A stretch of DNA of 64,000 nucleotides, taken from the NCBI RefSeq assembly GCF_044647545.1, contig NZ_CP172818.1; one strand, written 5' to 3'. The DNA is from Escherichia coli (GTDB taxonomy: Bacteria > Pseudomonadota > Gammaproteobacteria > Enterobacterales > Enterobacteriaceae). The notes under the pieces were generated by a model, which had not been told where the DNA came from, made no database searches, and worked only from the letters and a program-made list of their open reading frames with translations. A program made the position numbers and the translations under genes. Positions 17,362 through 36,117 of the stretch are shown one piece after another; positions within the stretch are counted from its first letter, which is position 1; every line of letters starts with the position of its first letter.

Positions 17362-17396
17362 GTTCACTGCTTCCTTGTTTTAAGTAAAGATAATAA

Positions 17397-19018
<1,622 letters not shown>

Positions 19019-19027
19019 TTTGCATCC

Positions 19028-19681: not shown

Positions 19682-19852
19682 TATAGCCTAATAACGCGCA
19701 TCTTTCATGACGGCAAACAATAGGGTAGTATTGACAAGCCAATTACAAATCATTAACAAAAAATTGCTCTAAAGCATCCGTATCGCAGGACGCAAACGCA
19801 TATGCAACGTGGTGGCAGACGAGCAAACCAGTAGCGCTCGAAGGAGAGGTGA

Positions 19853-21103
19853 ATGGAAAGTAAAGTAGTTGTTCCGGCACAAGGCAAGAAGATCACCCTG
19901 CAAAACGGCAAACTCAACGTTCCTGAAAATCCGATTATCCCTTACATTGAAGGTGATGGAATCGGTGTAGATGTAACCCCAGCCATGCTGAAAGTGGTCG
20001 ACGCTGCAGTCGAGAAAGCCTATAAAGGCGAGCGTAAAATCTCCTGGATGGAAATTTACACCGGTGAAAAATCCACACAGGTTTATGGTCAGGATGTCTG
20101 GCTACCTGCTGAAACCCTTGATCTGATTCGTGAATATCGCGTTGCCATCAAAGGCCCGCTGACCACTCCGGTTGGTGGTGGTATTCGCTCTCTCAACGTT
20201 GCTCTGCGCCAGGAACTGGATCTCTACATCTGCCTGCGTCCGGTACGTTACTATCAGGGCACTCCAAGCCCGGTTAAACACCCTGAACTGACCGATATGG
20301 TTATCTTCCGTGAAAACTCGGAAGACATTTATGCGGGTATCGAATGGAAAGCAGACTCTGCCGACGCTGAGAAAGTGATTAAATTCCTGCGTGAAGAGAT
20401 GGGCGTGAAGAAAATTCGCTTCCCGGAACATTGCGGCATCGGTATTAAGCCGTGTTCTGAAGAAGGCACCAAACGTCTGGTTCGTGCAGCGATCGAATAC
20501 GCAATTGCTAACGATCGTGACTCTGTGACCCTGGTGCACAAAGGCAACATCATGAAGTTCACCGAAGGCGCGTTTAAAGACTGGGGCTACCAGCTGGCGC
20601 GTGAAGAGTTTGGCGGTGAACTGATCGACGGCGGCCCGTGGCTGAAAGTTAAAAACCCGAACACCGGCAAAGAGATCGTCATTAAAGACGTGATTGCTGA
20701 TGCATTCCTGCAACAGATCCTGCTGCGTCCGGCTGAATATGATGTTATCGCCTGTATGAACCTGAACGGTGACTACATTTCTGACGCCCTGGCAGCGCAG
20801 GTTGGCGGTATCGGTATCGCCCCTGGCGCAAACATCGGTGACGAATGCGCCCTGTTTGAAGCCACCCACGGTACTGCGCCGAAATATGCCGGTCAGGACA
20901 AAGTAAACCCAGGCTCTATTATTCTCTCCGCTGAGATGATGTTACGCCATATGGGCTGGACTGAAGCCGCAGACTTGATTGTTAAAGGTATGGAAGGCGC
21001 AATCAACGCCAAGACTGTAACCTATGACTTCGAACGTCTGATGGAAGGCGCTAAACTGCTGAAATGTTCAGAGTTTGGTGACGCGATCATCAAGAATATG
21101 TAA
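19853..21103 (+). CDS. icd: Isocitrate dehydrogenase (NADP) Icd
   Basis: 416 aa with motif NLNGDYISD. The last 161 nt lie inside the prophage-flanking direct repeat. Confidence 0.97.
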
Positions 21104-21154
21104 TTACTACATGTGTTAAATATTGTAACGGGCGTATAACACGCCCGTTGTTTT
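20943..21154 (+). repeat. Left 212-bp direct repeat (icd 3' end plus terminator; attL side)
   Basis: Reads identically to 36118-36329 in my base-by-base comparison. Confidence 0.9.
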
Positions 21155-21156
21155 TT
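21127..21156 (+). terminator. icd Rho-independent terminator (copy 1)
   Basis: 9-bp stem aacgggcgt/acgcccgtt, 5-nt loop, then a T6 run. Confidence 0.85.
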
Positions 21157-21172
21157 GTTAGGCTGCTAACGG

Positions 21173-21205
21173 TTATCAAAATTTTATCAAAAAAAGTTAT
21201 CAAAA
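21173..21205 (+). repeat. Three direct TTATCAAAA copies (candidate integrase arm-type sites)
   Basis: TTATCAAAA at 21173, 21184 and 21197, just inside the left junction. A fourth copy in the same orientation lies at 35988-35996 near the right junction. Confidence 0.45.
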
Positions 21206-21518
21206 CCCCTCGGTAGTTTTGGGGTAGGCTGGCCGGTCAGGTGGTAGTTCTACTACTAGTCTCCCACATAGATATTCCTTAGCTTTTTATTATTGCTGGC
21301 GGACGCTCGTTAATATTTAAGGTCTTCATTGATTAAGACATCCCCAAAGTTAGTTATGTATTCACTGTTATTAGGACAATTATGAATTACCACTCCTTAC
21401 ACCCGCTCAAATATTGTTAAATTGCCGGTTTTGTATCAACTACTCACCCGGGACTCGCCAGGGGACAGCCAACAGGCATTGGGTGCAATCACCTTAGCGT
21501 TCAGGTACATGCGGAATG

Positions 21519-21543
21519 TAAAAAAGGCCGCGAGCGCGGCCCC
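21519..21543 (-). terminator. Rho-independent terminator of ymfE-ymfD
   Basis: The minus strand reads ggccgc-gctc-gcggcc followed by T6. It lies about 55 nt 3' of the ymfD stop. Confidence 0.75.
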
Positions 21544-21596
21544 TTCACATACATCTTTAGTACTGAGACTGTTTAACCTAGGGAATTATTATCGTA

Positions 21597-22262
21597 TTAT
21601 ATTGCATTACAACTCCCAACAGTGACATATGAACTTCCTGCTTTACTCCACGACTTTAATATTTCAAGGCCATGTGAAGAACATATTTCTTGCACTGCGA
21701 GTTCATCGAGTAATCCATAGTAAGAAACACTTTTTGAATTTTTGTAAATGTATCCGTAAAGATGTTTTCTTCCTGTTTCGTATTTTTTGAAGTATGAGCT
21801 TTTATATTGATTTACAATAAGAGTCTCACCTCCTGATTTTAGTAATCTCTTGATGCTAAGAACTATTTTGTCGATTGTATCCCGACAAGGAACGGCAGAG
21901 AGAACATTAGAGCAAAGGATGAAATCGTAACCCCCAATTATTTTGTCGACATCCTCGAAAGCAACTGTATTTGCATTTTTATAATATCGTGGGACATAGT
22001 CAATAATTTTAGTTTTAATTCCTCTAATAATTTGCTCTCTTTCAAGTTGCCTTTTCGAGTCTAGAAAAGTAACTTCATCAAATTTACTGATTAATTCATC
22101 AGAATATCTAAGTTTTCCGCAGCCAAAATCAAGGGCGTGGCCATTTTTCTCAATGCTTCTAATATACTCGCAAAGATATCTAGAGGGCATCGTATGAGGT
22201 TTTGCTGCATTCTCTGAGCGAATATTAACTCCGTGCATATTATAGTTCAAAGCAAGTACCAT
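21597..22262 (-). CDS. ymfD: Class I SAM-dependent methyltransferase YmfD (substrate unknown)
   Basis: 221 aa. Motif I ALDFGCGKLRY, acidic post-I FLDS, motif IV-like FILCSNVL. Very AT-rich. Start abuts the ymfE stop (TGAATG). Confidence 0.85.
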   Translation of the reverse strand: MVLALNYNMHGVNIRSENAAKPHTMPSRYLCEYIRSIEKNGHALDFGCGKLRYSDELISKFDEVTFLDSKRQLEREQIIRGIKTKIIDYVPRYYKNANTVAFEDVDKIIGGYDFILCSNVLSAVPCRDTIDKIVLSIKRLLKSGGETLIVNQYKSSYFKKYETGRKHLYGYIYKNSKSVSYYGLLDELAVQEICSSHGLEILKSWSKAGSSYVTVGSCNAI

Positions 22263-22976
22263 TCAATTAATGTTATTTTTAGTGAAAAATTCTTTTATTT
22301 TATCGTCCGGGATTTTTCCGACTTGACTTTCAGTTCTGGGCTTAACTGTCAAAGCAAAGATAATACCACTCACTGAGAATGATAAAATTACAAAAAAGAA
22401 TAAAGACAGCAAAGAACCTTCAACATGAAAAATATCCATTTGTTTGCAAAAAAAGATTATTAGGAAGGAAATTAATGCAATTATCGAAAATTCAAAAAAT
22501 ATCCAAAAATAGTATACTTTATTCCAGAAGAGTTCAATATAATGTTTGTCTTCAATTTTTCTTACTTCAGGGTAATATAGATTGCTCATTACATTGTGAG
22601 CTTCATCTTTATTTAATTTTCTGTTGACTCCAGCTCTCCGTGATAACGGTTTTATAATTAGATGCTTATCCCAAAGATATCGCACCCGAAGTAGTTTGGC
22701 TGCATTGTTATGTAGGTCTAACGCACCGCTAATTAAATATGCAAAAATCGCAAAAGCACAAGGTAATATACCAAAAGATAGTGCCCAATTAATAAAGCTC
22801 TCATGATCTTTAATAGGTGGGACATACTTGGTTGGTAATGTTATTAAAGGGATGTATTCGTAAATAACTAGAAGTATGCAATATATTAGCGTATTTAAGA
22901 AAGTTGCTTTATGAAGTTTAGGCAACATTTCATTATAATTTTTGGGGGGTTCGAACATATTATTCACCTGAGTCAC
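22263..22976 (-). CDS. ymfE: Polytopic inner-membrane protein YmfE (function unknown)
   Basis: 237-aa ORF with about 4 hydrophobic helices and alternative Met starts within the first 7 codons. Translationally coupled to ymfD. Confidence 0.8.
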   Translation of the reverse strand: MTQVNNMFEPPKNYNEMLPKLHKATFLNTLIYCILLVIYEYIPLITLPTKYVPPIKDHESFINWALSFGILPCAFAIFAYLISGALDLHNNAAKLLRVRYLWDKHLIIKPLSRRAGVNRKLNKDEAHNVMSNLYYPEVRKIEDKHYIELFWNKVYYFWIFFEFSIIALISFLIIFFCKQMDIFHVEGSLLSLFFFVILSFSVSGIIFALTVKPRTESQVGKIPDDKIKEFFTKNNIN

Positions 22977-23168
22977 GCTTTAGGATAGTGTAATGGTAAT
23001 ATTTAATTAAGTGTCATTATATACTTTTCAGTAGGTTAGTTACAATTTTTTGTATCTGTTCAGGCTGACCTAGCTTCGCTGACAGACAATATTGTGATCA
23101 GTAGCACGTATCGAGGAGGAGTAGCGCTACAAATTTGACGCTGGGTGAGAATCTGAAATTGATAGAAA

Positions 23169-23232
23169 TGAAATAATGAAATAATGAAATGATGAAATGA
23201 TGAAATGATGAAATGATGAAATGATGAAATGA
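23169..23232. repeat. 8-bp tandem repeat, 8 copies (2 x TGAAATAA + 6 x TGAAATGA)
   Basis: Counted directly in the sequence. Lies in the divergent ymfE/lit intergenic region. Confidence 0.95.
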
Positions 23233-23424
23233 TGACAGAGTGTCCAGTGGGCACGGATGGTGTCTTACGACATGCTTACCTTAATCGTTCCCAGTGTGCC
23301 TATAGCAGATATTCTAAACATGTCGATAATTCATTACGCATATAGTATCGAACATAGAAAAAACTGAAGATTCATCTTATTTTGTATATACTACCTAGCC
23401 CAACAATGTAGAGGTTAACGAAAA

Positions 23425-24318
23425 ATGCGCTCACCAATTTGTCATCTTTTCTCAGCAATTAATTCATCACCATTTAAGATTGCACCAGAGAAGGAGCAAG
23501 ATCTTAAAACGATAGTTGACGACAAAAAAATTATAATTTCAGTTGTGAGTGAACCTGGTTTTAATATCCGAGTCAGGAAGAATGAGAGTAATAATTCACA
23601 TGAAATAGTTCTAACAGTAGCTTCACTTGAATATATTTGGGCATTTTCCAATTTCTTTTGGGTTTTTACGCAAGAGTACTCCAAATCTCAGAAAAATAAT
23701 GATGAGCACTTTGATTTAACAGGAAAAAATAGGCTTAAAAAGTCTGATGAACTTCTTAAATGGGCAAGGAAAAACTTGCAAACAACAGGTTGCGAATCAT
23801 GGCCTAAAAAATGTCCCAAGCCAGAAGCATATTTACAAGGAAGCGAAGACTCACAAGTTGCTAGCGAGATATTTCTTTGTGCTATTGCTTGGATTCTTCA
23901 TCATGAAATAAGTCATGTTGTTTTACAGCATCCATTGGTCACTACAGCATTCTCCACTCAAGAGGAGCGTGAAGCAGATTCACATGCTACAAAATGGATA
24001 TTAGGCAACCTGTATGAATCCGCTCCTGAATTAAAGAAACGTGCACTTGGCATTGCTACGGCAGTGCTTTGTATACAAAGCTTAGAAGTTGAAAATTACT
24101 TCTGTTTACAAAATACACACCCAGCTGCATATGAGCGTATATATTCGAATATTTCATGCTACCCTGTCGGAAATGAAGAGTTGATTGAAGCTCTATGTAC
24201 AGTGATGCTTCAATATCTTTTCCATGGCAAAAATATCAATGTGAATCTAGATGGGGAGTCCTTTTCATCGATTTTAGGTGATCTTCTCTGTGATATTTCA
24301 CGTCTTACCAGTAACTGA
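23425..24318 (+). CDS. lit: Lit: phage-exclusion zinc metalloprotease (cleaves EF-Tu during T4 late gene expression)
   Basis: 297 aa with HExxH motif (HHEISH). Recognised as e14 Lit. Confidence 0.92.
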   Translation: MRSPICHLFSAINSSPFKIAPEKEQDLKTIVDDKKIIISVVSEPGFNIRVRKNESNNSHEIVLTVASLEYIWAFSNFFWVFTQEYSKSQKNNDEHFDLTGKNRLKKSDELLKWARKNLQTTGCESWPKKCPKPEAYLQGSEDSQVASEIFLCAIAWILHHEISHVVLQHPLVTTAFSTQEEREADSHATKWILGNLYESAPELKKRALGIATAVLCIQSLEVENYFCLQNTHPAAYERIYSNISCYPVGNEELIEALCTVMLQYLFHGKNINVNLDGESFSSILGDLLCDISRLTSN

Positions 24319-24408
24319 TATGGCTGTCCGCCGCTCGCTTAAAGTGGACTTTTTAGTTTTTATCATGTGCGGTGAGAAATTCAATGTGGCGTTGAGATGC
24401 TTAAAGGT

Positions 24409-25536
24409 TCACAACGCTACTTTGCTCCATCCTTTACCTCGATCATCATGATAACGATCGGTTTGTTGTTGTGTTTTATGACCAAGTAGTTTTTGTGTGT
24501 CTAACCCCTGTTCTTTATACAGACGTTCAGATAAAGACCTTTGCTCATGGAATGTCGCAGGTGAACCCTCTCCCCAGTCAATTCTTGCTAAATCTCTCGC
24601 TTTACTAAAATTCATCGTCAATGTATTGGCTTTAACCTGCGCTCCGCGCTCTGCTTGTGAAGTTGAACGAAAAAAATGCACTAAGTATGCACTGACTGCA
24701 TAGTCACGGCAGCGGGCTACTACATCGCGTAAACTCCAGTTAATCGCATTGAGGCGAAGAGAAAGAGGAATTGCGATTTTGCTCCCGGTCTTTTCCTGAA
24801 TGACATGAAGATGATCATCCCAAATATCGCTAAATTTCATACGCGAAATATCACCTAACCGCTGACCAGTAACCAGCGCTAACAGCATGGCATTTCCCAT
24901 GTAACGATGAGTAGCGTCTGCGATATCGAAGATTTTTTTCCATTCTTCAAGGCTCAGCCGTTGTCGGGTAATTTTTCTTCTTGGTTGTTTAGTGGCTAAT
25001 GCTGGGTTATAGCCAGGAGGTACTTCTCCGTAGTGCTGCGCCTCTTTGAAAACATCAATCAGGACGGAGCGAACTACTTGTGCCATTCTTGGCCGCCCAG
25101 CGGCGATATACTCATCAAGCAATTGTGCTATATCTCTGACATCAACGGCTGAGATCAACTTCATTCCTGCTCGTTCTCTGAGCAAGGATACTGGTTTAGC
25201 TTTTTGTTTATAGGTGTTGAGTCTTATATCACCACTTTTAAGCCTGTCATCCTGGATCGCTTGATAGCGATCTAACCAGGTTGACGTTGTGATAGCCTTT
25301 CCTTTGCTGGTTGCGATCCTGTCACTGATAGCCAGAATCTGCCGGGTTCTTTGTTCAGCCAGGCGAGTGTTGGCCTCAGTGGCAATAGCGATAGCTTCAG
25401 CTTCGTTTGTTCCCAAAGCATGGAATTTTCCTGTCACTGGATGCTTATACCGCCAATAGACTTTATTTACCTTCCTACTATAAAGCGGATATAAGTTAGG
25501 GACTGAAACATTATTCTTACGCGGTCTGGCTGCCAT
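24409..25536 (-). CDS. intE: Tyrosine integrase IntE
   Basis: 375 aa. Catalytic pattern R (GQRLGD), HxxR (HEQRSL) and H...Y (GHKTQQQTDRY). Confidence 0.94.
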   Translation of the reverse strand: MAARPRKNNVSVPNLYPLYSRKVNKVYWRYKHPVTGKFHALGTNEAEAIAIATEANTRLAEQRTRQILAISDRIATSKGKAITTSTWLDRYQAIQDDRLKSGDIRLNTYKQKAKPVSLLRERAGMKLISAVDVRDIAQLLDEYIAAGRPRMAQVVRSVLIDVFKEAQHYGEVPPGYNPALATKQPRRKITRQRLSLEEWKKIFDIADATHRYMGNAMLLALVTGQRLGDISRMKFSDIWDDHLHVIQEKTGSKIAIPLSLRLNAINWSLRDVVARCRDYAVSAYLVHFFRSTSQAERGAQVKANTLTMNFSKARDLARIDWGEGSPATFHEQRSLSERLYKEQGLDTQKLLGHKTQQQTDRYHDDRGKGWSKVAL

Positions 25537-25762
25537 TACTCAAAATCCGTTGCAAAAGTAATGAGTCATTTTTCTTGATTACAGGTGTTACCAACTCCCC
25601 AACTAACTCGGCGTCCTCACGCACTCGCCATAACCGGCCTTGTTTCATGGCCGGTGGACAAAATAAATTCTGCTTAGCATAACGACGCAATGTGGACACA
25701 CTTGGAGGATTACTTCTGTATTTTTCAGCAGCCCATTCTTCAAGAGTTAACATTTGAAGCAT
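25517..25762 (-). CDS. xisE: Excisionase XisE
   Basis: 81-aa small HTH-type protein. 20-nt overlap with the intE start. Confidence 0.85.
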   Translation of the reverse strand: MLQMLTLEEWAAEKYRSNPPSVSTLRRYAKQNLFCPPAMKQGRLWRVREDAELVGELVTPVIKKNDSLLLQRILSNGSQTA

Positions 25763-25829
25763 ATGCGATCACCTTATTACTACACTAACTGCTTAGTCTC
25801 ATCATATCGACCCTGCAAGGCCGATTAGT

Positions 25830-26120
25830 TTCTCCACAAAACAGAGAAGAACACCTGCGGCGGCAGCCGCCCGGATGGATTGGGTTATGAGCCCGTCGTC
25901 CGGTGATGCTCTTCTCTGTTTTGTAAAAAGGACGGTACCAGCCTGAAGCAAGGGTACAAACTGGTACCGCCAGGACTACACACAGCATAAAGTTGTGGTG
26001 CCGGGTGCCTCCCGGTGCCTGGCGAAGGTTGCACACCAGACGGGTGGGTATCCACAGAAGGTCGACTGTCAGCCTCAACCTTAACCCGCGTGCGCTGAGC
26101 CGCATTCACCACAACGCTAA
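25830..26120. other. GC-rich, stem-dense non-coding island (candidate structured RNA or leader)
   Basis: Perfect pairings at 25836-25850/25910-25924 (15 bp), 25933-25941/25961-25969 (9 bp), 25992-26000/26107-26115 (9 bp) and 26025-26031/26076-26082 (7 bp). Only overlapping low-quality ORFs are present. Confidence 0.3.
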
Positions 26121-26228
26121 GGATTCTCTTTGGTTGAAAATACTTAGCTGTTATGTGCCTGTCTTTTCACCACTTCAGGCTCGGTGGTATGCTGGAGTTC
26201 TCACACAGCCAGCAAGCAAGGAAACTTA

Positions 26229-26570
26229 ATGAACCAGTTTTATGTTCACGTTCGTCTATTTGAAGACACAGCCGAACAGACCAAAAAATTTGAAGAATTA
26301 ATGCTTAACTTTCTGTACCAGAAAACAGTTAAAGAGTCTGACGATAGCTGCTGCAGACTGATTCCAGAGGGATATATCCTCAAAAGTACAATGAACTGCC
26401 AACAAATCCTTGATCAAACATTTTCAATTGCTAACAGTGCCGGTGTTGACGCAAATATATTTGTCTGTAAATTTGAACAAAGCGCATGCTTACTTCCGTC
26501 TGCTTCCTTAGTTGGTAACGATTTCGTTCATTACGATCTTACGCCTAAGCCCATCAAGCTCGATTCTTAA
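26229..26570 (+). CDS. ymfI: Prophage protein YmfI (function unknown)
   Basis: Track ORF trimmed to ATG 26229 (MNQFYVHVRLFED), 113 aa. Confidence 0.7.
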   Translation: MNQFYVHVRLFEDTAEQTKKFEELMLNFLYQKTVKESDDSCCRLIPEGYILKSTMNCQQILDQTFSIANSAGVDANIFVCKFEQSACLLPSASLVGNDFVHYDLTPKPIKLDS

Positions 26571-26816
26571 AGCCTTAACCATTGTGTCGTGATAAACACG
26601 GCTCACCTTCTCTCCATTGCATGGCAGAGGGGTGAGTGTGTTAGCCATGAAATTCATGAACTCGGTTCGACCAGGGGCTTGCGCCCCGCAAGTCTTTAAT
26701 GCCTGTTTTGCTAACAAAATGCGGGCCTCAGTGCCTGCATTTGGCTCTATCTGCTGCAAACGTTTAGCGTCTTCCAGCAACAATGCGATCACATGCTTCA
26801 AATTCTGCTCATTCAT
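26508..26816 (-). CDS. ymfJ: Prophage protein YmfJ (function unknown)
   Basis: 102-aa ORF. Its 3' end overlaps ymfI convergently by 63 nt. Confidence 0.7.
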   Translation of the reverse strand: MNEQNLKHVIALLLEDAKRLQQIEPNAGTEARILLAKQALKTCGAQAPGRTEFMNFMANTLTPLPCNGEKVSRVYHDTMVKALRIELDGLRRKIVMNEIVTN

Positions 26817-26923
26817 CTATTCTCTCCACTGAAATCATCCGCTAACGAATCATCCCGGTCTTCGTACGTACCGGGCGGGCTACTTCGTGGGCGTCCTGCC
26901 TGTTTGTTGTTTCTCTTGGGTAC

Positions 26924-26952
26924 ATTATGTATCTCAAAGGTACATTGTCAAG
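26924..26952 (-). promoter_or_regulatory. Near-consensus sigma70 promoter reading toward ymfJ
   Basis: Minus strand: TTGACA (26952-26947), 17-nt spacer, CATAAT (26929-26924). Two ATGTACC repeats overlap it. Confidence 0.55.
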
Positions 26953-26953
26953 T

Positions 26954-26978
26954 ATAAAAAAACCTGCCGAAGCAGGTT
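26954..26978 (-). terminator. Rho-independent terminator of cohE
   Basis: The minus strand reads aacctgc-ttcg-gcaggtt followed by a T-run, directly 3' of the cohE stop. Confidence 0.75.
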
Positions 26979-26990
26979 CATAAACATTGA

Positions 26991-27665
26991 TTAGGCTTTG
27001 ATTTTGTATCTTCTTGGTTTTCCTGAGAAAATCACAGTACCAATTATAGAGCAATTACCGTTGATCTTAATGTAAGGCTCAGGCCAGTTTGGGTTTAACG
27101 CTTTGAGATAACGCTGTGTCCCATCTTCTATCAACCTTTTGAAGGTGGTTTCACCTGTATCGTGCATCAATGCAATAACGTCGTCACCGTGGCAGGCAGG
27201 TACTTCAGGATCGACAAAAATCATGTCTCCCGGGCGGTACTCATCAATCATTGAATCACCTATTACCCGCAAGATATAAGTCATTTCCCCACAGGGTACA
27301 GGGCAGGGATACGTTTCTGCTGTGCTCAAATCAACCTCAGAATATCCAACTTCTTTCCATGCTCCGGCCTGTACCCATGATATGACAGGGACTAATGTGA
27401 TTTGTTTATTAGTGATTGAAACATCAGGTTTTTTTGTGATGTTCGTTGTCTGGTGTTCTTGATCGAGCCATCCTACAGGCAGGTCGAAACATTTTTCGAT
27501 GTGTCGTGCCATGCTGTCACCGATATTTTTAGTAGCACCATCTCCCATAAACCTGCTGGTCTGGGTTGGCTCGCGATCAATCATAGTGGCAAAGGAAGAA
27601 TTCCCGCCAACACCATCTCTCAGTTTTCTGGCGTTAGACCGCCGGATGTCATGGATTGTTTTCAT
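26991..27665 (-). CDS. cohE: CI-like prophage repressor CohE (HTH + S24 self-cleaving peptidase)
   Basis: 224 aa. Cleavage-type Ala-Gly in WVQAGAW. Ser/Lys dyad motifs GDSM and FKRL. Confidence 0.9.
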   Translation of the reverse strand: MKTIHDIRRSNARKLRDGVGGNSSFATMIDREPTQTSRFMGDGATKNIGDSMARHIEKCFDLPVGWLDQEHQTTNITKKPDVSITNKQITLVPVISWVQAGAWKEVGYSEVDLSTAETYPCPVPCGEMTYILRVIGDSMIDEYRPGDMIFVDPEVPACHGDDVIALMHDTGETTFKRLIEDGTQRYLKALNPNWPEPYIKINGNCSIIGTVIFSGKPRRYKIKA

Positions 27666-27680
27666 AACGAAATTAAAACC

Positions 27681-27701
27681 CTTGTACCGTTAAGGTACAA
27701 G
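27681..27701. promoter_or_regulatory. Operator-like palindrome (TGTAC-N7-GTACA class)
   Basis: cttgtacc-gttaa-ggtacaag, with perfect 8-bp arms, in the cohE/croE divergent region. Confidence 0.6.
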
Positions 27702-27731
27702 TATCTTGAAGGTTCATTTCAATCATGTAAT

Positions 27732-27750
27732 ATGTACACCGGAGGTACAT
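27732..27750. promoter_or_regulatory. Operator-like palindrome (TGTAC-N7-GTACA class)
   Basis: atgtac-accggag-gtacat overlaps the croE Shine-Dalgarno GGAGG. Confidence 0.6.
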
Positions 27751-27755
27751 ATTGT

Positions 27756-27956
27756 ATGAAAGCGTATTGGGACTCTTTAACCAAAGAACAGCAGGGCGAG
27801 TTGGCCGGAAAAGTTGGCTCAACACCTGGCTACTTACGGCTGGTTTTCAATGGCTATAAAAAAGCCAGTTTTGTGCTGGCTAAAAAACTTGAGCAATACA
27901 CATCAGGTGCAATTACGAAATCTGACTTAAGACCGGATATCTATCCGAAAGATTAG
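27756..27956 (+). CDS. croE: Cro-like repressor CroE
   Basis: 66-aa tail of track ORF 27453-27956, starting at ATG 27756 after GGAGG. Divergent from cohE. Confidence 0.8.
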   Translation: MKAYWDSLTKEQQGELAGKVGSTPGYLRLVFNGYKKASFVLAKKLEQYTSGAITKSDLRPDIYPKD

Positions 27957-27987
27957 CAGAACACTTTCAATTTTTAACCACAGAACG

Positions 27988-28554
27988 ATGAGGCTAATCG
28001 TGGGTAAGCATCACTGGAAAATAGAAAAACAGCCTGAGTGGTACGTGAAAGCTGTCAGAAAAACTATCGCGGCGTTGCCGAGTGGTTACGCTGAAGCGGC
28101 TGACTGGCTCGATGTAACAGAAAACGCTTTATTCAACCGCCTTCGTGCAGATGGCGATCAGATTTTCCCGCTGGGATGGGCAATGGTTTTACAGCGTGCT
28201 GGTGGCACTCACTTCATTGCTGATGCTGTGGCGCAGTCTGCAAATGGCGTCTTTGTGTCTCTTCCTGACGTCGAGGATGTGGACAACGCCGATATTAACC
28301 AGCGTCTGCTGGAAGTCATTGAACAGATCGGCAGTTATTCAAAACAGATTCGTTCAGCAATCGAAGACGGTGTAGTGGAACCGCATGAGAAGACAGCAAT
28401 TAACGACGAGCTGTATCTCTCAATTTCGAAGCTGCAGGAGCATGCAGCACTTGTCTACAAAATTTTTTGCATTTCAGAAAGTAACGCCCGCGAGTGTGCA
28501 GCTCCGGGCGTCGTGGCGTCGATTGCTTCTGGTTGTGGAGAAACTAACGCATGA
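27988..28554 (+). CDS. ymfL: Prophage regulatory protein YmfL (CII-like)
   Basis: 188-aa ORF, first gene after croE. Start choice is uncertain. Confidence 0.75.
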
Positions 28555-28889
28555 ACAGTTTAACAACACACTACCGTCGCTCGCAACTGATTGCACTTCC
28601 TGTACCGGGTGGAAAAGCGAAGGTGGAGTATTGCTATGCAGTGAATGTACCAGGTGACAGGGAAATTGTAACCCACAGCTTTGCAGAGTGGGCTGTGGGT
28701 GATTTCAACCGGCAGAAGGAGACAGTCCTTTGCGACAAGTTAACCGCTGGTTCAAAGATCACTACGGAGTGCCCGTCAGAGTCATTCGTTGGGAGCCGGA
28801 AACACAACGGGTTATCTACCTCCGTGAAGGCTATGAACATGAATGCTTCAGTCCGGTCGAACAGTTTCGTCGTAAATTCAGGGAAATAG
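28551..28889 (+). CDS. ymfM: YmfM, prophage cell-division inhibitor candidate
   Basis: 112 aa with a 4-nt overlap with ymfL. Recognised as e14 YmfM. Confidence 0.75.
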
Positions 28890-28898
28890 AGGTCGGTC

Positions 28899-30266
28899 AT
28901 GAGCACTAAATTAACCGGCTATGTATGGGATGGTTGCGCTGCATCAGGCATGAAGTTATCCAGCGTGGCAATTATGGCCCGCCTGGCTGATTTCAGTAAT
29001 GACGAAGGTGTGTGCTGGCCATCAATTGAAACCATTGCCCGTCAGATTGGCGCGGGGATGAGTACCGTCAGAACGGCTATCGCACGGCTGGAAGCAGAAG
29101 GCTGGTTAACGCGTAAGGCGCGTCGCCAGGGTGATGGTTCATCACCCCACTGTGCGGTGGTGGATGAATATCACGAGCACGCCACCGATGCGCTTTATAC
29201 CACGATGCTTACCGGGATGGGGGCGCGACGTCAGCCACTGATGTGGGCCATCACCACCGCCGGGTACAACATTGAGGGGCCGTGCTACGACAAGCGGCGG
29301 GAAGTTATCGAGATGCTCAACGGTTCGGTACCCAACGATGAACTGTTCGGGATCATCTATACCGTTGACGAAGGCGATGACTGGACCGACCCGCAGGTGC
29401 TGGAAAAAGCCAACCCGAATATTGGCGTGTCGGTTTATCGCGAATTTTTGTTAAGTCAGCAGCAGCGTGCGAAAAATAACGCCCGTCTGGCAAACGTCTT
29501 TAAAACAAAACACCTCAATATCTGGGTGTCGGCGCGTTCGGCGTATTTCAACCTGGTGAGCTGGCAGAGCTGCGAGGATAAATCACTGACCCTTGAGCAG
29601 TTCGAGGGGCAGCCGTGCATTCTGGCCTTTGACCTGGCGCGTAAGCTGGATATGAACAGCATGGCGCGACTTTATACCCGCGAGATTGACGGTAAAACGC
29701 ATTACTACAGTGTGGCCCCGCGTTTCTGGGTACCGTATGACACGGTGTACAGCGTCGAGAAAAATGAAGATCGCCGGACAGCCGAACGCTTTCAGAAATG
29801 GGTGGAAATGGGCGTTCTGACTGTTACCGCTGGTGCGGAGGTGGATTATCGCTACATCCTCGAGGAGGCCAAAGCGGCGAACAAAATCAGCCCGGTCAGT
29901 GAGTCACCCATCGACCCCTTCGGGGCGACCGGGCTGTCGCATGACCTTGCTGATGAAGACCTGAACCCCATCACCATCATTCAGAACTACACCAACATGT
30001 CCGATCCGATGAAAGAGCTGGAAGCGGCGATTGAATCGGGGCGCTTTCATCATGACGGCAATCCCATCATGACCTGGTGTATCGGCAACGTGGTCGGCAA
30101 AACCATTCCGGGTAACGATGATGTGGTGAAGCCTGTCAAGGAGCAGGCGGAAAACAAAATCGATGGTGCGGTTGCACTGATTATGGCGATTGGCAGAGCA
30201 ATGCTGTACGAGAAAGAAGACACGCTGTCTGACCACATTGAGTCCTATGGGATCCGCTCGCTTTAA
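28899..30266 (+). pseudogene. oweE: Fusion of an HTH replication-type N-terminus to the C-terminal part of a terminase large subunit (oweE/ymfN)
   Basis: Residues 1 to about 88 form a winged-HTH-like segment ([16 protein letters not shown]). From [10 protein letters not shown] onward the protein is terminase-like and has no Walker A region. Confidence 0.8.
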
Positions 30267-30276
30267 CTGAGGTAAT

Positions 30277-30444
30277 TATGATCATGCTGATTCTCCGCCT
30301 CTGGTGGGCGGCGGTGCTTTTGCTGGCGTATGGTGCCGCTCATTTATCCCCCGGGGGTTTTGTTCCCGGGGCGTTGTGCCTGTTCTGGTCGTTGCTGGTG
30401 GCGCGAATCTGTTCGACACAGTCGTCTGTCGGCGGAGGTAAATA
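30277..30444 (+). CDS. ymfR: Small hydrophobic prophage protein (ymfR-like)
   Basis: My own translation gives 55 codons ([21 protein letters not shown]...), below the track cutoff. Lies between terminase and portal remnants. Confidence 0.4.
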
Positions 30445-30860
30445 GTGTTCTTTTCGGGATTATTTCAACGAAAAAGCGACGCACCGGTGACCACGCCAGC
30501 AGAGCTGGCGGATGCCATCGGGTTGTCCTACGACACCTATACCGGAAAGCAGATCAGCAGCCAGCGGGCCATGCGACTGACGGCGGTTTTTTCCTGTGTC
30601 AGGGTGCTGGCAGAGTCGGTCGGGATGTTGCCTGCAATCTGTATCACCTGAACGGCAGCCTGAAACAGAGAGCCACGGCGAGCGTCTGCATAGCTGATCT
30701 CCACGCATCCCAATGGCTATATGACGCCGCAGGAGTTCTGGGAGCTGGTGGTCACCTGTCTGTGCCTGCGGGAAACTTTTACGCCTACAAAGTGAAAGCA
30801 TTTGGCGAAGTGGCTGAAACTGCTGCCCGTCGATCCCGGCTGTGTGGTATATGCGCTGGG
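30445..30860 (+). pseudogene. beeE: Portal protein N-terminal remnant (beeE)
   Basis: GTG ORF MFFSGLFQRKSD...RAMRLTAVFSCVRVLAESVG is portal-like. Portal-like text continues in other frames (MTPQEFWELVV...GNFYAYKVKAFGEVAE), so it is frameshifted and then truncated. Confidence 0.7.
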
Positions 30861-31633
30861 AAGGTGTCAGCGATGGCCTGAAGGTGACCGCCGGGAGTGT
30901 TATTCAGCGCGATGACCTGGTGCAGTACACGACAACTGACGATGCAACCAGCTCCGGTGGTGTCCTGCGCGTGCCGATCACTTGCTCAACTACAGGCGCG
31001 GTCGGTAACGCTGACGACGGTACGGCATTAATCCTGGTCACGCCGGTGAATGGTCTGCCGTCTTCCGGTGTTGCAGATACCCTGACTGGCGGATTTGATA
31101 CTGAAGAGCTGGAAACGTGGCGCGCCCGCGTCATTGAGCGGTATTACTGGACGCCTCAGGGCGGGGCTGACGGGGACTATGTCGTCTGGGCTAAAGAAGT
31201 GTCAGGCATTACCCGTGCATGGACATACCGCCACTGGATGGGAACGGGGACTGTCGGTGTGATGATTGCCAGCAGTGACCTGATTAATCCCATTCCGGAA
31301 GAATCAACGGAAACGGCGGCAAGACAACACATTGAGCCACTGGCCCCGGTGGCAGGCTCTGATTTGTATGTATTCAGGCCGGTGGCGCATAAAGTGGATT
31401 TTCATATCCGCGTGACGCCGGACACACCGGAAATACGGGCTGCCATCACCGCGGAGTTGCGTTCGTTCCTGCTGCGTGATGGTTATCCGCAGGGAGAACT
31501 GAAGGTATCGCGTATCAGTGAGGCGATTTCCGGTGCGAACGGGGAATACAGCCATCAGTTGCTTGCACCGGCAGACAATATCTCCATTGCAAAAAATGAA
31601 CTGGCGGTTCTGGGGACGATTTCATGGACGTGA
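30842..31633 (+). pseudogene. jayE: Baseplate J-like protein, C-terminal fragment (jayE)
   Basis: 263-aa ORF lacking the N-terminal half of J-like baseplate proteins and abutting the portal remnant. Confidence 0.7.
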
Positions 31634-32208
31634 CAAACGATGATTACATCCGCCTGTTATCGGCACTGTTGCCGCCCGGTCCTGCATGGTCAGCCAGCGA
31701 TCCGGCGATTGCCGGTGCGGCACCTTCATTAACCCGCGTTCATCAGCGTGCGGATGCCCTGATGCGGGAGCTGGATCCGCGCACCACCACTGAACTGATA
31801 AACCGCTGGGAGCGTCTGTGCGGTCTGCCGGATGAATGTATTCCCGCAGGGACACAGACCCTTCGCCAGCGTCAGCAACGGCTGGATGCGAAGGTTAATC
31901 TGGCGGGCGGCATCAATGAGGATTTTTACCTTGCACAGCTTGCTGCCCTGGGCAGACCAGACGCCACTATCACGCGATACGATAAAAGCACGTTCACCTG
32001 CTCATCGGCCTGTACTGACGCAGTGAATGCGCCGGAATGGCGGTATTACTGGCAGGTCAACATGCCAGCCGCCACCAACACCACCTGGATGACATGTGGC
32101 GATCCCTGTGATTCCGCACTGCGTATCTGGGGCGACACCGTTGTCGAGTGCGTGCTTAACAAACTCTGCCCTTCGCATACCTACGTAATTTTTAAATATC
32201 CGGAGTAA
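31624..32208 (+). CDS. ymfQ: Tail/baseplate protein YmfQ (Mu gp48 / P2 I-like)
   Basis: 194 aa. Overlaps the jayE stop and immediately precedes the tail-fibre gene. Confidence 0.8.
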
Positions 32209-32211
32209 TCC

Positions 32212-32841
32212 ATGCATCGTATAGACACGAAAACCGCGCAGAAGGATAAGTTCGGCGCGGGTAAGAACGGTTTTACCCGTGGTAACCCCCAGACCGGCAC
32301 ACCTGCCACCGATCTGGATGATGACTACTTTGACATGTTGCAGGAAGAACTTTGTAGCGTGGTGGAGGCCTCCGGTGCCAGCCTGGAGAAAGGGCGGCAT
32401 GACCAGATGCTTACCGCACTTCGTGCGCTGCTGTTAAGCCGCAAGAATCCGTTTGGCGATATCAAATCGGATGGCACTGTGCAAACGGCTCTCGAAAACC
32501 TTAGTTTAGGAGAAGGAGCAAAACTCAATGCAGCAACGGCTACATTAGGACGCACCGGTTTCATAGCTATACCGGTTATGATTGGTGGTATTGAGCAATC
32601 AGTAATCATTCAGTGGGGGTGGAATGCCGCAAAAGCATCTGCCTCTGGGGGGGATGGAAATACAGTTGTATTCCCGGTTGCGTTTAATAATGCCTGTGTT
32701 GCCGTTGTTGCAAATTATGACAATGTCAGCGCACCTATCAATGCAGTGGCAACGGGGGGATATACAACCACTTCGTTTTTATTACGGTGCGCAGCTCAAA
32801 CGGGTAGTTATTACTATAACTGGATTGCTATTGGGTATTAA
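32212..32841 (+). CDS. stfP: Side tail fibre protein StfP (constant N-terminus joined to the currently expressed variable C-terminus)
   Basis: 209 aa. The crossover site lies inside the gene at codons for ALENLSLGEG. Confidence 0.85.
   Translation: MHRIDTKTAQKDKFGAGKNGFTRGNPQTGTPATDLDDDYFDMLQEELCSVVEASGASLEKGRHDQMLTALRALLLSRKNPFGDIKSDGTVQTALENLSLGEGAKLNAATATLGRTGFIAIPVMIGGIEQSVIIQWGWNAAKASASGGDGNTVVFPVAFNNACVAVVANYDNVSAPINAVATGGYTTTSFLLRCAAQTGSYYYNWIAIGY
32489..32514. other. Pin/Gin/Hin-type 26-bp crossover site (left)
   Basis: Its reverse complement TTCTCCTAAACT-AA-GGTTTTCGAGAG is inverted relative to the right site and shares the central AA. Confidence 0.8.
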
Positions 32842-32842
32842 G

Positions 32843-33319
32843 ATGAAAATATACTGTTGCTTAAATACCGTTGGTTTTTTTATGGATGGCTGTGGCGTCA
32901 TTCCGCCAGATTCTAAAGAAATAACGGCAGAACACTGGCAGTCATTATTAAAATCTCAAGCTGAAGGAGGCGTGATCGATTTTTCTGTTTTTCCTCCTTC
33001 TATTAAAGAGGTTATCCGTACTCATGATGATGAAGTCGCAGATGCGAACTTTCAAAAGCAGATGCTTATCTCTGATGCAACTGATTTTATCAATAGCAGA
33101 CAGTGGCAGGGTAAGGCTGCATTGGGAAGACTTAAAGAAGATGAGCTGAAACAATCTGATTTGTGGGCTGGATTATCTGGACGCACTGGCGCTGGTCGAT
33201 ACCGCCAGTGCGCCGGATCTGAATGGCCTACGCCTCCGGCAGTTCAGGCCAGTAAATATCCGGTACAGTGCTGGTATCCGTTGCCATCACCGCGTCAATG
33301 TAATCCAGCACGGCGTTAA
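32843..33319 (+). CDS. tfaP: Tail fibre assembly protein TfaP, apparently damaged near the C-terminus
   Basis: Starts at MKIYCCLNTVGFFMDGCGV. The conserved Tfa motif LDYLDALALVDTASAPDL is encoded in the +1 frame at 33168-33221, between in-frame conserved flanks. Confidence 0.6.
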   Translation: MKIYCCLNTVGFFMDGCGVIPPDSKEITAEHWQSLLKSQAEGGVIDFSVFPPSIKEVIRTHDDEVADANFQKQMLISDATDFINSRQWQGKAALGRLKEDELKQSDLWAGLSGRTGAGRYRQCAGSEWPTPPAVQASKYPVQCWYPLPSPRQCNPARR

Positions 33320-33830
33320 GTCGGGTGTTTTCTGTCTGCGTCAGCTTCCTCCCGGCCTGCAATTTCAGTTGAATCAGACTAATTGAAGCCATTGCAGTAT
33401 CAATCAGTGACTGGCGCTGTGCTTCTGCCGCTTCTATTGCGGCACCGTATTGTGCCTCGGTATCGGTTACCCATTTCTCACCATCCCATTTATCGTATGG
33501 TGTTAACGGAGCGATAGTGGTCATATTTTCAGGGTAATCCCCTGGCGCTGTGATTTCTTTTGGTTCTCCCGTTTCGGTGCTATAAACAATTTCACCGCGA
33601 TGGTCTGGCACATATTTCCACGAGTTCAAATCCGTTGAGCGGCAAATTGCATAACCCGTTTTATGTGTACCAGGTGCATCTAAACAAGAACATGCCGGGA
33701 TACCGACACCGACAGCAAGATATTCGGTTGATGTTGAGATATATTCCTGTGTCCCATTATCATAGTTATAAACGGTAATATCCCCTGCCTTTACCGCGAT
33801 CAGCGCATCATTTAATACAGCTCCACCCAT
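33228..33830 (-). CDS. tfaE: Tail fibre assembly protein TfaE
   Basis: 200 aa with conserved C-terminus LDYIDAVMATDTSTVPDIYWPELPEA. Its ATG overlaps the stfE stop (TAATG). Confidence 0.9.
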   Translation of the reverse strand: MGGAVLNDALIAVKAGDITVYNYDNGTQEYISTSTEYLAVGVGIPACSCLDAPGTHKTGYAICRSTDLNSWKYVPDHRGEIVYSTETGEPKEITAPGDYPENMTTIAPLTPYDKWDGEKWVTDTEAQYGAAIEAAEAQRQSLIDTAMASISLIQLKLQAGRKLTQTENTRLNAVLDYIDAVMATDTSTVPDIYWPELPEA

Positions 33831-34335
33831 TATGCAGCCCTCACGATATAATTAAATGAAATATTTCGTGGACGTGATTCGTTACCGAATTTATCTGAAC
33901 CATCAGTATTTCTCGCTGAATATGTTTGGAGGATTGTCCCTGATGATGGATTCGCATTATATTCATTTGTTCCTGCTGGATAGTATGACATTGCACTATT
34001 GTCATCTTTGAAAACAGCAGACATCAATCCATCACCACCACTTCCGTAAGCAGTTGTAAGAAATGACGGTGATCGAAAGAAAGACTATTTTGTGCCGAAA
34101 GTAAGGGAACGACCAGAATCTACCCCGCGCCCATCATCCCAGCCACGAATAAACTCACCACGTAAATCAGGCAATTTATTTGTCGGGTAAGCCTTCGCCA
34201 GTTTTGGATATTCAACGGCAGAAAAAGCCGCACCGTTGCATTTCAGCCAGCCAGTAGGCGGTGTGGCTGAAGGCCACGGAACAGGCACACCAACGGGTAA
34301 TGCCGAACCTTCTCCCAAACCAAGGTTTATGAAAA
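33830..34335 (-). pseudogene. stfE: Silent alternative tail-fibre C-terminal cassette StfE, with in-frame TAG
   Basis: Begins at the right crossover site (LGLGEGSALPVG). Track ORFs 34085-34390 and 33830-34027 are in one frame, interrupted only by TAG at 34085-34087. Confidence 0.8.
34310..34335. other. Pin/Gin/Hin-type 26-bp crossover site (right)
   Basis: TTCTCCCAAACC-AA-GGTTTATGAAAA, about 55 nt upstream of the pinE ATG. Confidence 0.85.
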
Positions 34336-34388
34336 TGCGGAATAAGCGGCAAATGGCATCATTCCTGCTTTTGTCAGGGAGAGCTACC

Positions 34389-34941
34389 ATGCTTATTGGC
34401 TATGTATGTGTGTCAACAAATGACCGAAACACAAATCTACAGCGTAATGCGCTGAACTGTGCAGGATGCGACTCATTTTTGAAGACAAGATAAGCGGTAC
34501 AAAGTCTGAAAGGCCGGGACTGAAAAAACTGCTCAGGACATTATCGGCAGGTGACACGCTGGTGGTCTGGAAACTGGACCGGCTGGGGCGTAGTATGCGG
34601 CATCTGGTCATTCTGGTTGAGGAGTTGCGCGAACGTGGCGTTAATTTTCGCAGCCTAACAGATGCTATTGATATCAGCACATTCGATGGGGCGTTTTTCT
34701 TTATGTGATGGGGGCCTTGGCTGAAATTGAGCGTGAACTGATTGTTGAACGAACAAAAGCTGGACTGGAAACTGCTCGTGCACAGGGACGAATTGGTGGA
34801 CGTCGTCCCAAACTTACACCAGAACAATGGGCACAAGCTGGACGATTAATTGCAGCAGGAACTCCTCGCCAGAAGGTGGCGATTATCTATGATGTTGGTG
34901 TGTCAACTTTGTATAAGAGGTTTCCTGCAGGGGATAAATAA
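34389..34941 (+). pseudogene. pinE: Serine DNA invertase PinE, inactivated
   Basis: Split over three frames (track ORFs ending 34493, 34708, 34941) by single-base losses near 34470 and 34702. The N-terminus reads YVCVSTNDRN where invertases have YVRVSTNDQN. Confidence 0.88.
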
Positions 34942-35047
34942 AGTTAAAGACACTTTGTGTACAAAAGAAAGTAAAACAACAGCAACTTGTTGCAATTTTA
35001 TCAATAAAAGTAGTATTGTCGTGAAAAATTGATTAAAGATTAATATT

Positions 35048-35881
35048 ATGCATGTTTTTGATAATAATGGAATTGAACTGAAAGCTGAGTGTTCGATAGG
35101 TGAAGAGGATGGTGTTTATGGTCTAATCCTTGAGTCGTGGGGGCCGGGTGACAGAAACAAAGATTACAATATCGCTCTTGATTATATCATTGAACGGTTG
35201 GTTGATTCTGGTGTATCCCAAGTCGTAGTATATCTGGCGTCATCATCAGTCAGAAAACATATGCATTCTTTGGATGAAAGAAAAATCCATCCTGGTGAAT
35301 ATTTTACTTTGATTGGTAATAGCCCCCGCGATATACGCTTGAAGATGTGTGGTTATCAGGCTTATTTTAGTCGTACGGGGAGAAAGGAAATTCCTTCCGG
35401 CAATAGAACGAAACGAATATTGATAAATGTTCCAGGTATTTATAGTGACAGTTTTTGGGCGTCTATAATACGTGGAGAACTATCAGAGCTTTCACAGCCT
35501 ACAGATGATGAATCGCTTCTGAATATGAGGGTTAGTAAATTAATTAAGAAAACGTTGAGTCAACCCGAGGGCTCCAGGAAACCAGTTGAGGTAGAAAGAC
35601 TACAAAAAGTTTATGTCCGAGACCCGATGGTAAAAGCTTGGATTTTACAGCAAAGTAAAGGTATATGTGAAAACTGTGGTAAAAATGCTCCGTTTTATTT
35701 AAATGATGGAAACCCATATTTGGAAGTACATCATGTAATTCCCCTGTCTTCAGGTGGTGCTGATACAACAGATAACTGTGTTGCCCTTTGTCCGAATTGC
35801 CATAGAGAATTGCACTATAGTAAAAATGCAAAAGAACTAATCGAGATGCTTTACGTTAATATAAACCGATTACAGAAATAA
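35048..35881 (+). CDS. mcrA: McrA, HNH endonuclease restricting modified-cytosine DNA
   Basis: 277 aa. C-terminal HNH region CENCGK...HHVIPLSSGGADTTDNCVALCPNCHRELH. Confidence 0.93.
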   Translation: MHVFDNNGIELKAECSIGEEDGVYGLILESWGPGDRNKDYNIALDYIIERLVDSGVSQVVVYLASSSVRKHMHSLDERKIHPGEYFTLIGNSPRDIRLKMCGYQAYFSRTGRKEIPSGNRTKRILINVPGIYSDSFWASIIRGELSELSQPTDDESLLNMRVSKLIKKTLSQPEGSRKPVEVERLQKVYVRDPMVKAWILQQSKGICENCGKNAPFYLNDGNPYLEVHHVIPLSSGGADTTDNCVALCPNCHRELHYSKNAKELIEMLYVNINRLQK

Positions 35882-36117
35882 AATTATTTATTAAAGTCAC
35901 ATTTAAGACGTAATACCCTACAGGGTAAAAATTTTCTCTGATCTTAACTTCTGCAAATGTTAACTGCTATTTTTATGCTAAAAATGGTTATCAAAACTCA
36001 AAAACACATGTTTATAATCAATGAGTTATAGAAATGCTAAGGGCTAATGAGTTATATGCAAATTAGTAAAATTATGTTGCTATGTCAGATAGTTACGATT
36101 TAGTCATCTAACTAATG

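Follow-up and report, generated by a model that had tools for sequence, protein, structure and literature searches.

A mosaic, frameshifted pin gene in the e14 P-segment inversion switch of an Escherichia coli chromosome

The e14 P segment and its setting

The stretch of Escherichia coli DNA analysed here (64 kb, hereafter the window) carries a tail-fibre DNA-inversion switch at icd, flanked by ymfQ and mcrA. It is the known e14 P segment/pin switch of E. coli K-12 and not a novel system. Upstream of the switch lie icd, lit and intE, and downstream lies mcrA; from ymfI to iraM, gene order and gene fusions match those of K-12 e14 at 96-100% identity, and the terminase, portal and baseplate genes are fused or partial and collinear with their K-12 e14 counterparts. 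The element is identified as e14 by its position at icd, by the presence of intE, lit, ymfK and mcrA, and by structural genes truncated as in K-12. A preliminary description of this DNA had recognised a tail-fibre inversion switch of the Gin/Hin/Pin type, which is supported. The features of the region are as follows.

32212-32841, plus strand: stfP (ycfK), the expressed fusion of the constant N-terminal part with the StfP variable C-terminus; intact ORF, 209 aa
32489-32514, minus strand: left crossover site pixL, reading TTCTCCTAAACT-AA-GGTTTTCGAGAG on the minus strand
32843-33319, plus strand: tfaP, assembly chaperone for StfP, damaged; delimited by alignment to K-12
33228-33830, minus strand: tfaE, chaperone for the silent cassette; intact ORF, 200 aa
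33830-34335, minus strand: stfE, silent alternative tail-fibre C-terminal cassette
34283-34731: putative recombination patch of the type seen in prfC-adjacent truncated pin relics
34310-34335, plus strand: right crossover site pixR, reading TTCTCCCAAACC-AA-GGTTTATGAAAA
34389-34941, plus strand: pin pseudogene in three frames (pieces 34389-34493, 34472-34708 and 34696-34941)
34410-34473: predicted recombinational enhancer, located through its homology to hin

The two 26-bp sites are inverted with respect to each other and identical in their AA core, and the 64-kb window contains no others of their kind. Searching with a 19-nt core pattern and allowing at most three mismatches gave two matches, compared with 0.03 expected from shuffled sequence, and the pair was also the top inverted repeat in a repeat search, its arms being 1791 nt apart; coordinates, orientation and central AA thus agree with those first described. 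In its working form, such a switch depends on the small serine invertase Pin, assisted by host Fis, which binds an enhancer located in the 5' end of pin. Pin swaps DNA between the two inverted sites, and inversion joins the constant tail-fibre N-terminus either to StfP, with TfaP as its chaperone, or to StfE, with TfaE. The single assembled sequence has the segment in the StfP-fused orientation, as had been proposed, and the related record CP092703.1 shares it.

With no complete E. coli genome matching the switch at more than 92%, a Shigella flexneri source was considered; against it, the chromosomal flank is 100% identical to that of E. coli ST648-type strains, and e14 is absent at icd in those flank-matching strains. 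A search of complete genomes for an inverted copy of the exact P segment, as a proxy for inversion, gave no match above 92.6%. Exact protein matches were found neither for the window TfaE nor for the 80-aa pin fragment, and a scan of genome contigs for the R7C/Q13R allele was also negative; StfP pointed to CP092703.1 alone, and McrA is too widespread to be informative.

Lesions in pin and in the rest of the switch

With K-12 PinE as query, tblastn returned pin pieces at 34389-34490, 34472-34702 and 34696-34938 in frames +3, +2 and +1, that is, with two net -1 shifts, confirming the earlier reading of a broken invertase gene in three frames. The first piece reads MLIGYVCVSTNDRNTNLQRNALNCAGCDSFLKTR followed by a stop, the second ends in FDGAFFFM and a stop, and the third shares 96% identity with PinE. 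At the first lesion, a G has been lost between 34471 and 34472, outside any homopolymer and alongside a G>C change. The second had been taken for a single 1-nt loss; while the breaks do lie near 34470 and 34702, as described, this one is a cluster of three indels, made up of an inserted T at 34682 and, at about 34698-34700, two shortened T runs (T6>T5 and T4>T3). The inserted T and the T6>T5 contraction compensate each other and turn PMGR into FDGA, and T4>T3 yields the stop. Two of these indels sit in T runs, the commonest place for sequencing errors.

Substitutions add to the damage, namely R7C (34407-34409), Q13R (34425-34427) and D16N (34434-34436). Mutation of Y6, R8, S10, D36, R68 or R71 in Tn3 resolvase greatly reduces cleavage and recombination (PMC2794168). 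The window Pin keeps Y5, S9, D33, R65 and R68, including the arginines of LDRLGR, but has Cys at the equivalent of Tn3 R8, so that its catalytic set is incomplete and the reported loss of a catalytic-pocket Arg holds; the equivalent of Tn3 Q14 is also altered (Q13R). Pfam still recognises Resolvase and HTH_7 in the pin remnants, although premature stops leave no intact invertase gene, and tblastn found no second PinE homologue in the 64-kb window. As judged from its sequence, with two frame breaks, R7C, Q13R and the PMGR>FDGA exchange, the pin gene is non-functional. Programmed frameshifting as a rescue was set aside on reasoning alone, as two shifts would be needed and R7C would persist.

The crossover sites had been called intact, which overstates their condition: compared with the working K-12 sites, the left one carries C7T and C12T in its inner half-site and the right one C15G in its outer half-site. 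A search of 5,426 complete E. coli genomes gave no full-length match with the left-site substitutions, which affect among others an otherwise invariant C beside the core. With a shared AA core and half-sites near consensus, the window sites may nevertheless still be functional. The working K-12 pixR also deviates at the base beside the core.

In switches of this class, the enhancer lies towards the 5' end of the invertase gene and has two Fis sites spaced by about 48 bp. The hin enhancer starts 99 bp from hixL and contains two 15-bp Fis cores with ATTTA and TAATG between them (PMC3798978), a published layout that the hin locus fits. By homology, the predicted proximal Fis core of the window (34410-34424, GTGTCAACAAATGAC) is intact, and the predicted distal core (34459-34473, GTGCAGGATGCGA^CT) is broken by a 1-nt deletion, with loss of the conserved terminal C. 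This deletion is the same one that causes the first pin frameshift, and it suggests an enhancer damaged at its distal Fis site.

The tail-fibre genes are affected as well. The StfP reading frame (Pfam Gp53-like_C, E = 8e-16) has a Gly>Ser replacement caused by the left-site C12T. In tfaP, a +1 at about 33165 and a -1 at about 33219 put 18 codons of the conserved C-terminus out of frame, and the normal stop is lost (158 aa vs the usual 137); the Caudo_TAP match covers only profile positions 58-106 of 131, at threshold score. TfaE is 84% identical to its K-12 counterpart (Caudo_TAP, E = 4e-32). The silent stfE cassette contains an in-frame TAG at 34087-34085; it aligns with K-12 StfE in a single tblastn frame at 56% identity, its distal half is non-homologous, and its Pfam match is Collar. 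A 1-nt deletion at 34338, in the pix-pin intergenic region, shifts the K-12 StfE start codon out of frame. Damage therefore extends past the invertase to the left site, the predicted enhancer, stfE, tfaP and the pix-pin intergenic region. All three of pin, stfE and tfaP merit pseudogene flags in an annotation.

Mosaic structure and authenticity of the lesions

The window is identical to K-12 over 32510-33155 and again from 34732 to about 36000, tracts that cover stfP-tfaP and the 3' third of pin through mcrA, and is divergent over 33155-34731. Of the two options in the preliminary description, a mosaic or a decaying allele, the mosaic is upheld by this K-12 identity on both sides, whereas decay in place is contradicted by the character of the patch at 34283-34731, in which 43 informative sites agree with a relic and 2 with K-12. 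Along the first 345 nt of pin, identity to the prfC-linked truncated relics of FORC_082, L3Cip3 and 50EVAW is 96%; R7C is already present in these relics, and 43 further markers are shared with them. These relics end after codon 115 and are fused to an S24 peptidase fragment; their truncation point corresponds to window position 34731, at most 3 nt from the mosaic joint. Unlike them, the window has a K-12-type pin 3' end and extra private frameshifts, and about ten of its private changes are missing from the known relics. No donor was found for the tfaE/stfE part (33155-34283), where the relic loci are at most 88% identical.

We propose that the dead 5' two-thirds of pin and the adjacent tfaE/stfE DNA would have entered by homologous recombination. 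The pin portion would derive from a truncated, already inactive paralogue of the prfC-linked type, and the patch would stop where the homology of that paralogue stops. Direction and donor are deduced from the pattern of identities, which suggests that most of the damage arrived with DNA from a paralogue that was dead beforehand, rather than building up in place. A bolder version, in which a functional e14 invertase was killed in one step by gene conversion from the dead truncated paralogue, with a tract reaching the end of homology, is in our view less likely than not. If true, pseudogene-templated conversion would give cryptic prophage relics a means of disabling working genes in sister prophages, and here it would bar the host from making the anti-T2 factor StfE2 of the K-12 model (Kirigo et al., 2025). 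The sharp joint at the end of the truncated paralogue's homology offers, in any case, a clean example of recombination among prophage remnants spreading dead alleles.

Such a tract invites the question of whether it could have arisen during assembly or polishing, through reads from a paralogous relic or homopolymer errors, the true gene being intact and K-12-like. Mis-mapped polishing reads would indeed give a relic-like tract stopping exactly at the end of paralogue homology, and two of the indels lie in T runs. Moreover, CP092703.1, the only public record sharing the alleles of the window lineage, has an intact, K-12-like pin and a K-12-like tfaP 3' end. That record is itself suspect, however, since Ns are dotted over its polymorphic positions and it resembles a consensus whose construction is uncertain. 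Neither the first frameshift nor the +T insertion lies in a homopolymer run, the ten or so private changes go beyond the known relics, and no pin paralogue could account for the independent damage to tfaP, stfE, the left site and the intergenic region. Base quality, too, is high: over the 25-kb chromosomal flank, 479 substitutions separate the window from K-12, with 376 of the 444 genic ones at codon position 3, and there are only 4 indel columns, 3 of them intergenic. We consequently hold an artefact to be very unlikely and regard the lesions as genuine rather than as sequencing noise. The notion of the window as K-12 sequence with simulated noise was likewise rejected, the differences being clustered and biased to third codon positions.

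Capacity for inversion and relation to known systems

A broken invertase gene need not immobilise the segment if an invertase encoded elsewhere, whether PinQ/PinR-like or a Pin from another prophage, acts in trans on adequate sites. The identical AA cores and near-consensus half-sites are compatible with a switch that is still active in this manner; the median E. coli genome carries Pin-type sequences at 2 places, and over-produced PinQ has been reported to invert the e14 P segment of K-12 in trans, to 88%. On the other hand, deleting pinE from K-12 reportedly leaves the segment locked, in the very StfP orientation seen here, despite chromosomal pinQ and pinR. No second invertase homologue was found in the 64 kb of the window, the predicted distal Fis core is disrupted, the conserved C beside the core of the left site is privately altered, and the stop codon in the silent cassette argues for disuse. 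Continued switching is thus improbable, though less so than an assembly artefact. Rescue by an invertase in trans is doubtful because the damage reaches beyond pin, and even with such an enzyme inversion would likely be impaired.

Least credible of all is a strict shufflon, meaning a multi-site, multi-segment system served by a tyrosine recombinase and now locked, an idea that can for practical purposes be dismissed. The locus shares with it only the theme of alternative C-terminal cassettes exchanged by inversion. The window has exactly two sites in 64 kb, bounding one invertible segment, and the recombinase remnants are Resolvase and HTH_7, of the serine family, rather than the tyrosine recombinase Rci; for these reasons it is no shufflon of the R64 type, and the label, used in the preliminary description, is best avoided.

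We therefore favour, with considerable confidence, a decaying relic of the e14 P-segment/pin switch, in which Pin can no longer be made and the segment would be fixed in the StfP-fused form unless an invertase is provided in trans. Given the broken invertase gene and the damage to several other parts, the segment is probably stuck in that orientation. The dead pin is a case of ordinary decay within an already known system, and since e14 is defective and makes no virions, no host-range switch is at stake. On its own, this naturally inactivated version of a textbook inversion switch, sitting in a defective prophage, carries little weight. A recent report does give it a possible use: inversion of the e14 P segment is described as producing a chimeric StfE2 that blocks adsorption of phage T2 (Kirigo et al., 2025), and a natural pinE-null, StfP-locked strain with the StfE start out of frame (34338 deletion) would test that claim.

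The closest known system is K-12 e14 itself (stfP-tfaP-tfaE-stfE-pinE-mcrA), to which the window is equal in locus, gene order, orientation, site positions and prophage context. It differs in its twice-frameshifted pin with R7C, in the divergent DNA that replaces 33155-34731, in two left-site substitutions, in the nonsense codon of stfE and in the frameshifted patch of tfaP. In Shigella flexneri, the defective pinF is reportedly another pin allele inactivated in nature and carried by an e14-like element (Tominaga et al., J Bacteriol 1991); the chromosomal flank of the window matches E. coli ST648-type strains. The Salmonella Hin/hix-Fis system, which serves as the mechanistic reference for this subclass of DNA invertases, likewise has 26-bp AA-core sites and an enhancer within the invertase coding sequence, near its 5' end; the predicted pin Fis cores are at homologous positions, but about 10-11 bp (one helical turn) nearer to pixR than the hin cores to hixL, and the predicted distal core of the window, unlike that of hin, is broken. 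Hin, moreover, toggles a promoter, whereas the pin system exchanges tail-fibre cassettes. The same logic as in the pin system, with a serine invertase beside a segment of alternative tail-fibre C-termini and chaperones, governs the G segment/gin of Mu and the C segment/cin of P1 (PMC12529663). In Mu and P1 the switches work and control the host range of viable phages, whereas the prophage in the window is defective and its switch has decayed.

The P segment and its e14-type host

Gene order in the window runs lolC ... phoPQ ... purB ... icd, followed by an e14-type cryptic prophage and then by iraM, bluRF and further genes. Judged by homology, the locus is the known P/pin switch of e14, a member of the Hin/Gin/Cin/Pin class, with the following features.

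Features of the prophage and its switch
about 21.1-36.0 kb: e14-type cryptic prophage, directly after icd
before stfP: ymfQ, first gene of the tail-fibre end
32212-32841: stfP, ORF intact, one Gly>Ser change inside the crossover site
32489-32514, minus strand: left crossover site (pixL), TTCTCCTAAACT-AA-GGTTTTCGAGAG
32843-33319: tfaP
33228-33830, minus strand: tfaE, ORF intact
33830-34335, minus strand: stfE cassette
34310-34335, plus strand: right crossover site (pixR), TTCTCCCAAACC-AA-GGTTTATGAAAA
34389-34941: pin
34410-34424: proximal Fis core predicted by homology to hin, intact
34459-34473: distal Fis core predicted by homology to hin, holding a 1-nt deletion, terminal C lost
35048-35881: mcrA

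The prophage shares gene order and orientation with K-12 e14, even in its truncated and fused structural genes. The prophage defence genes lit and mcrA and the integrase are intact ORFs, which fits retention of useful cargo during erosion of the tail module. The chromosomal flank (5000-20000) matches ST648-type E. coli (IMT16316, ECONIH1) at 100% identity; these strains lack a prophage at icd. The window's e14 (21100-36000) is identical to that of K-12 over several kb-sized stretches. Finding a K-12-type e14 on such a distant chromosome implies that the element moved horizontally or recombined. A second patch, at 29000-31000 in the ymfN-ymfR region, where the terminase, portal and baseplate genes are already truncated, differs from both K-12 and CP092703.1 by clustered substitutions and about 20 indel columns. 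It points to continuing neutral decay or to one more recombination patch.

The two 26-bp sites lie exactly where the preliminary description had placed them. No other such site occurs in the 64 kb (chance expectation, 0.03 matches), and the pair forms the region's top inverted repeat. To call the sites intact, as had also been done, is an overstatement. The left site differs from K-12 at two positions, both in the inner half-site, one of them a C adjoining the core that is constant in the other 11 loci examined; over the 71-bp left-site region, no complete E. coli genome surpassed the K-12 allele (2 mismatches) at full length. The right site carries one change; since pixR of K-12, although a working site, shows a deviation of its own at the corresponding base of the outer half-site, the site changes are not necessarily disabling.

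Damage to pin and the tail module

Alignment of K-12 PinE with the window gives three pieces, one each in frames +3, +2 and +1. The first two end in NCAGCDSFLKTR and FDGAFFFM, each followed by a stop, and the third is 96% identical to PinE. Pfam places Resolvase profile positions 34-114 in the second piece and positions 116-144 together with HTH_7 in the third. The active-site block reads YVCVSTNDRN, so that Arg7, the equivalent of R8 in Tn3/gamma-delta resolvase, is Cys, while the remaining catalytic arginines (LDRLGR) are kept. In Tn3 resolvase, catalysis is greatly reduced by mutation of Y6, R8, S10, D36, R68 or R71 (PMC2794168). The broken, three-frame gene without its catalytic arginine that had been described from the sequence is thus borne out.

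At the first break, a G is missing between 34471 and 34472 and a neighbouring base is changed (G>C), outside any homopolymer. The second lesion comprises three indels: a T insertion at 34682 and a T6>T5 contraction cancel out, turning the conserved PMGR into FDGA, and a T4>T3 contraction causes the stop. Five or six indels in a 400-bp stretch of pin are more than the general error rate explains. Across the 25-kb chromosomal flank, 479 substitutions separate the window from K-12, with 376 of the 444 in-gene changes at third codon positions. Just four indel columns occur, and three of these are intergenic. Sequence quality is therefore good and the divergence genuinely evolutionary. A 1-nt insertion at 5069 relative to K-12, near the cobB 3' end, shortens that ORF to 273 aa and appears to be a lineage allele, not an error, because ST648-type strains match the region at 100%. 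In a megablast of window 1-25000 against K-12 the match begins at base 33, leaving bases 1-32 unaligned.

The Hin enhancer starts 99 bp from hixL, and ATTTA and TAATG separate its two 15-bp Fis cores (PMC3798978), a description matched by GTGTCAACAATTGAC and GTGCAAATTGTGACC in a Salmonella hin locus. The homologous cores in pin are GT(A/G)TCAACAAATGAC and GTGCAGGATGCGAGC; we infer their placement, which would put them nearer to the crossover site, pixR, than in hin, by one helical turn or about 10 bp.

Among the tail genes, stfP and tfaE retain intact ORFs. The stfE cassette is a single frame but contains an in-frame TAG (34087-34085), and in tfaP a +1/-1 pair scrambles 18 codons of the conserved C-terminus, the normal stop being read through. 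The pixR-pin spacer has six private changes within about 25 nt, one of which, a 1-nt deletion at 34338, breaks the frame between the cassette and the start codon used by stfE in K-12. On the minus strand (34336-34390), the open frame instead runs back to an ATG at 34390, overlapping the pin start; the leader of any StfE/StfE2-type product would therefore differ from K-12. As a functional switch the locus is deficient: the recombinase gene is broken, the set of catalytic residues is incomplete and the enhancer is doubtful.

Origin of the dead pin allele

The window equals K-12 over 32510-33155 and from 34732 to about 36000, and diverges over 33155-34731. Within 34283-34731, 43 informative sites agree with truncated pin relics adjoining prfC in FORC_082, L3Cip3 and 50EVAW and two with K-12, in keeping with the mosaic gene proposed earlier. 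These relics already have R7C and are cut off after codon 115, corresponding to window 34731. As the last relic-type marker lies at 34728 and K-12-type sequence begins at 34732, the joint coincides with the end of relic homology within 3 nt. All of the roughly 10 window-private pin changes fall within the patch and none in the following stretch of about 1.27 kb, so the lesions are older than the joint. On the simplest reading, the dead pin arose when the gene recombined with, or was converted by, a paralogue that was dead beforehand; a mechanism such as synthesis-dependent strand annealing with heteroduplex correction to the homology end would yield exactly such a joint. The donor of 34283-34731 was not found, no complete genome exceeding 96.3% identity over this stretch, and the tfaE/stfE part had no close relative among the loci examined.

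The relics sit in a conserved prophage remnant with a P-segment-like module, the truncated pin being fused to an S24/LexA-family peptidase fragment and neighboured by genes for an SDH-family Clp-fold serine proteinase and a dinI-like product. In E. coli QDFD216 (locus L015, 4515-5069), which has a fuller Mu-like tail module, the pin ORF is of full length (184 codons). Roughly its first 200 nt belong to the R7C type and are joined to a different pin 3' part, showing that this segment moves between pin genes. This gene, too, may be a mosaic that encodes no active invertase, although annotation treats it as intact.

CP092703.1 (1209790-1230419, aligning to window 22235-42813) is the only public record with the window's lineage-specific alleles; its pin is intact and K-12-like. 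Single Ns are scattered at its polymorphic positions, and three patches, one of them covering pin, have gone back to K-12 sequence (about 29250-30750, 33150-33250 and 34337-34731). The record has the look of a consensus, either reference-guided or mixed.

Functional consequences and known switches

As e14 is a defective prophage, virion host range is not at stake. By analogy with K-12, the P segment would be expected to stay in the StfP-fused orientation. An invertase elsewhere in the genome might rescue inversion in trans, as Pin-like loci are common in E. coli, although the predicted enhancer lesion makes such rescue less likely; within the 64-kb window no second PinE homologue was found. 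For K-12, Kirigo et al. (2025) report that PinE inverts the P segment, as does over-produced PinQ in trans, and that inversion yields StfE2, a chimera able to block the adsorption of T2.

The mildly interesting points are confined to the proposed pseudogene-templated origin of the dead pin and to the strain as a natural pinE-null. The preliminary reading of a locked shufflon is partly supported: pin is broken and the segment sits in the StfP-fused orientation, but the label must go, because two sites and a serine recombinase do not make a shufflon. The pinF gene of Shigella flexneri, carried by an e14-like element, was reportedly described earlier as a naturally defective pin. The type of system is already known, and nothing is new at that level.
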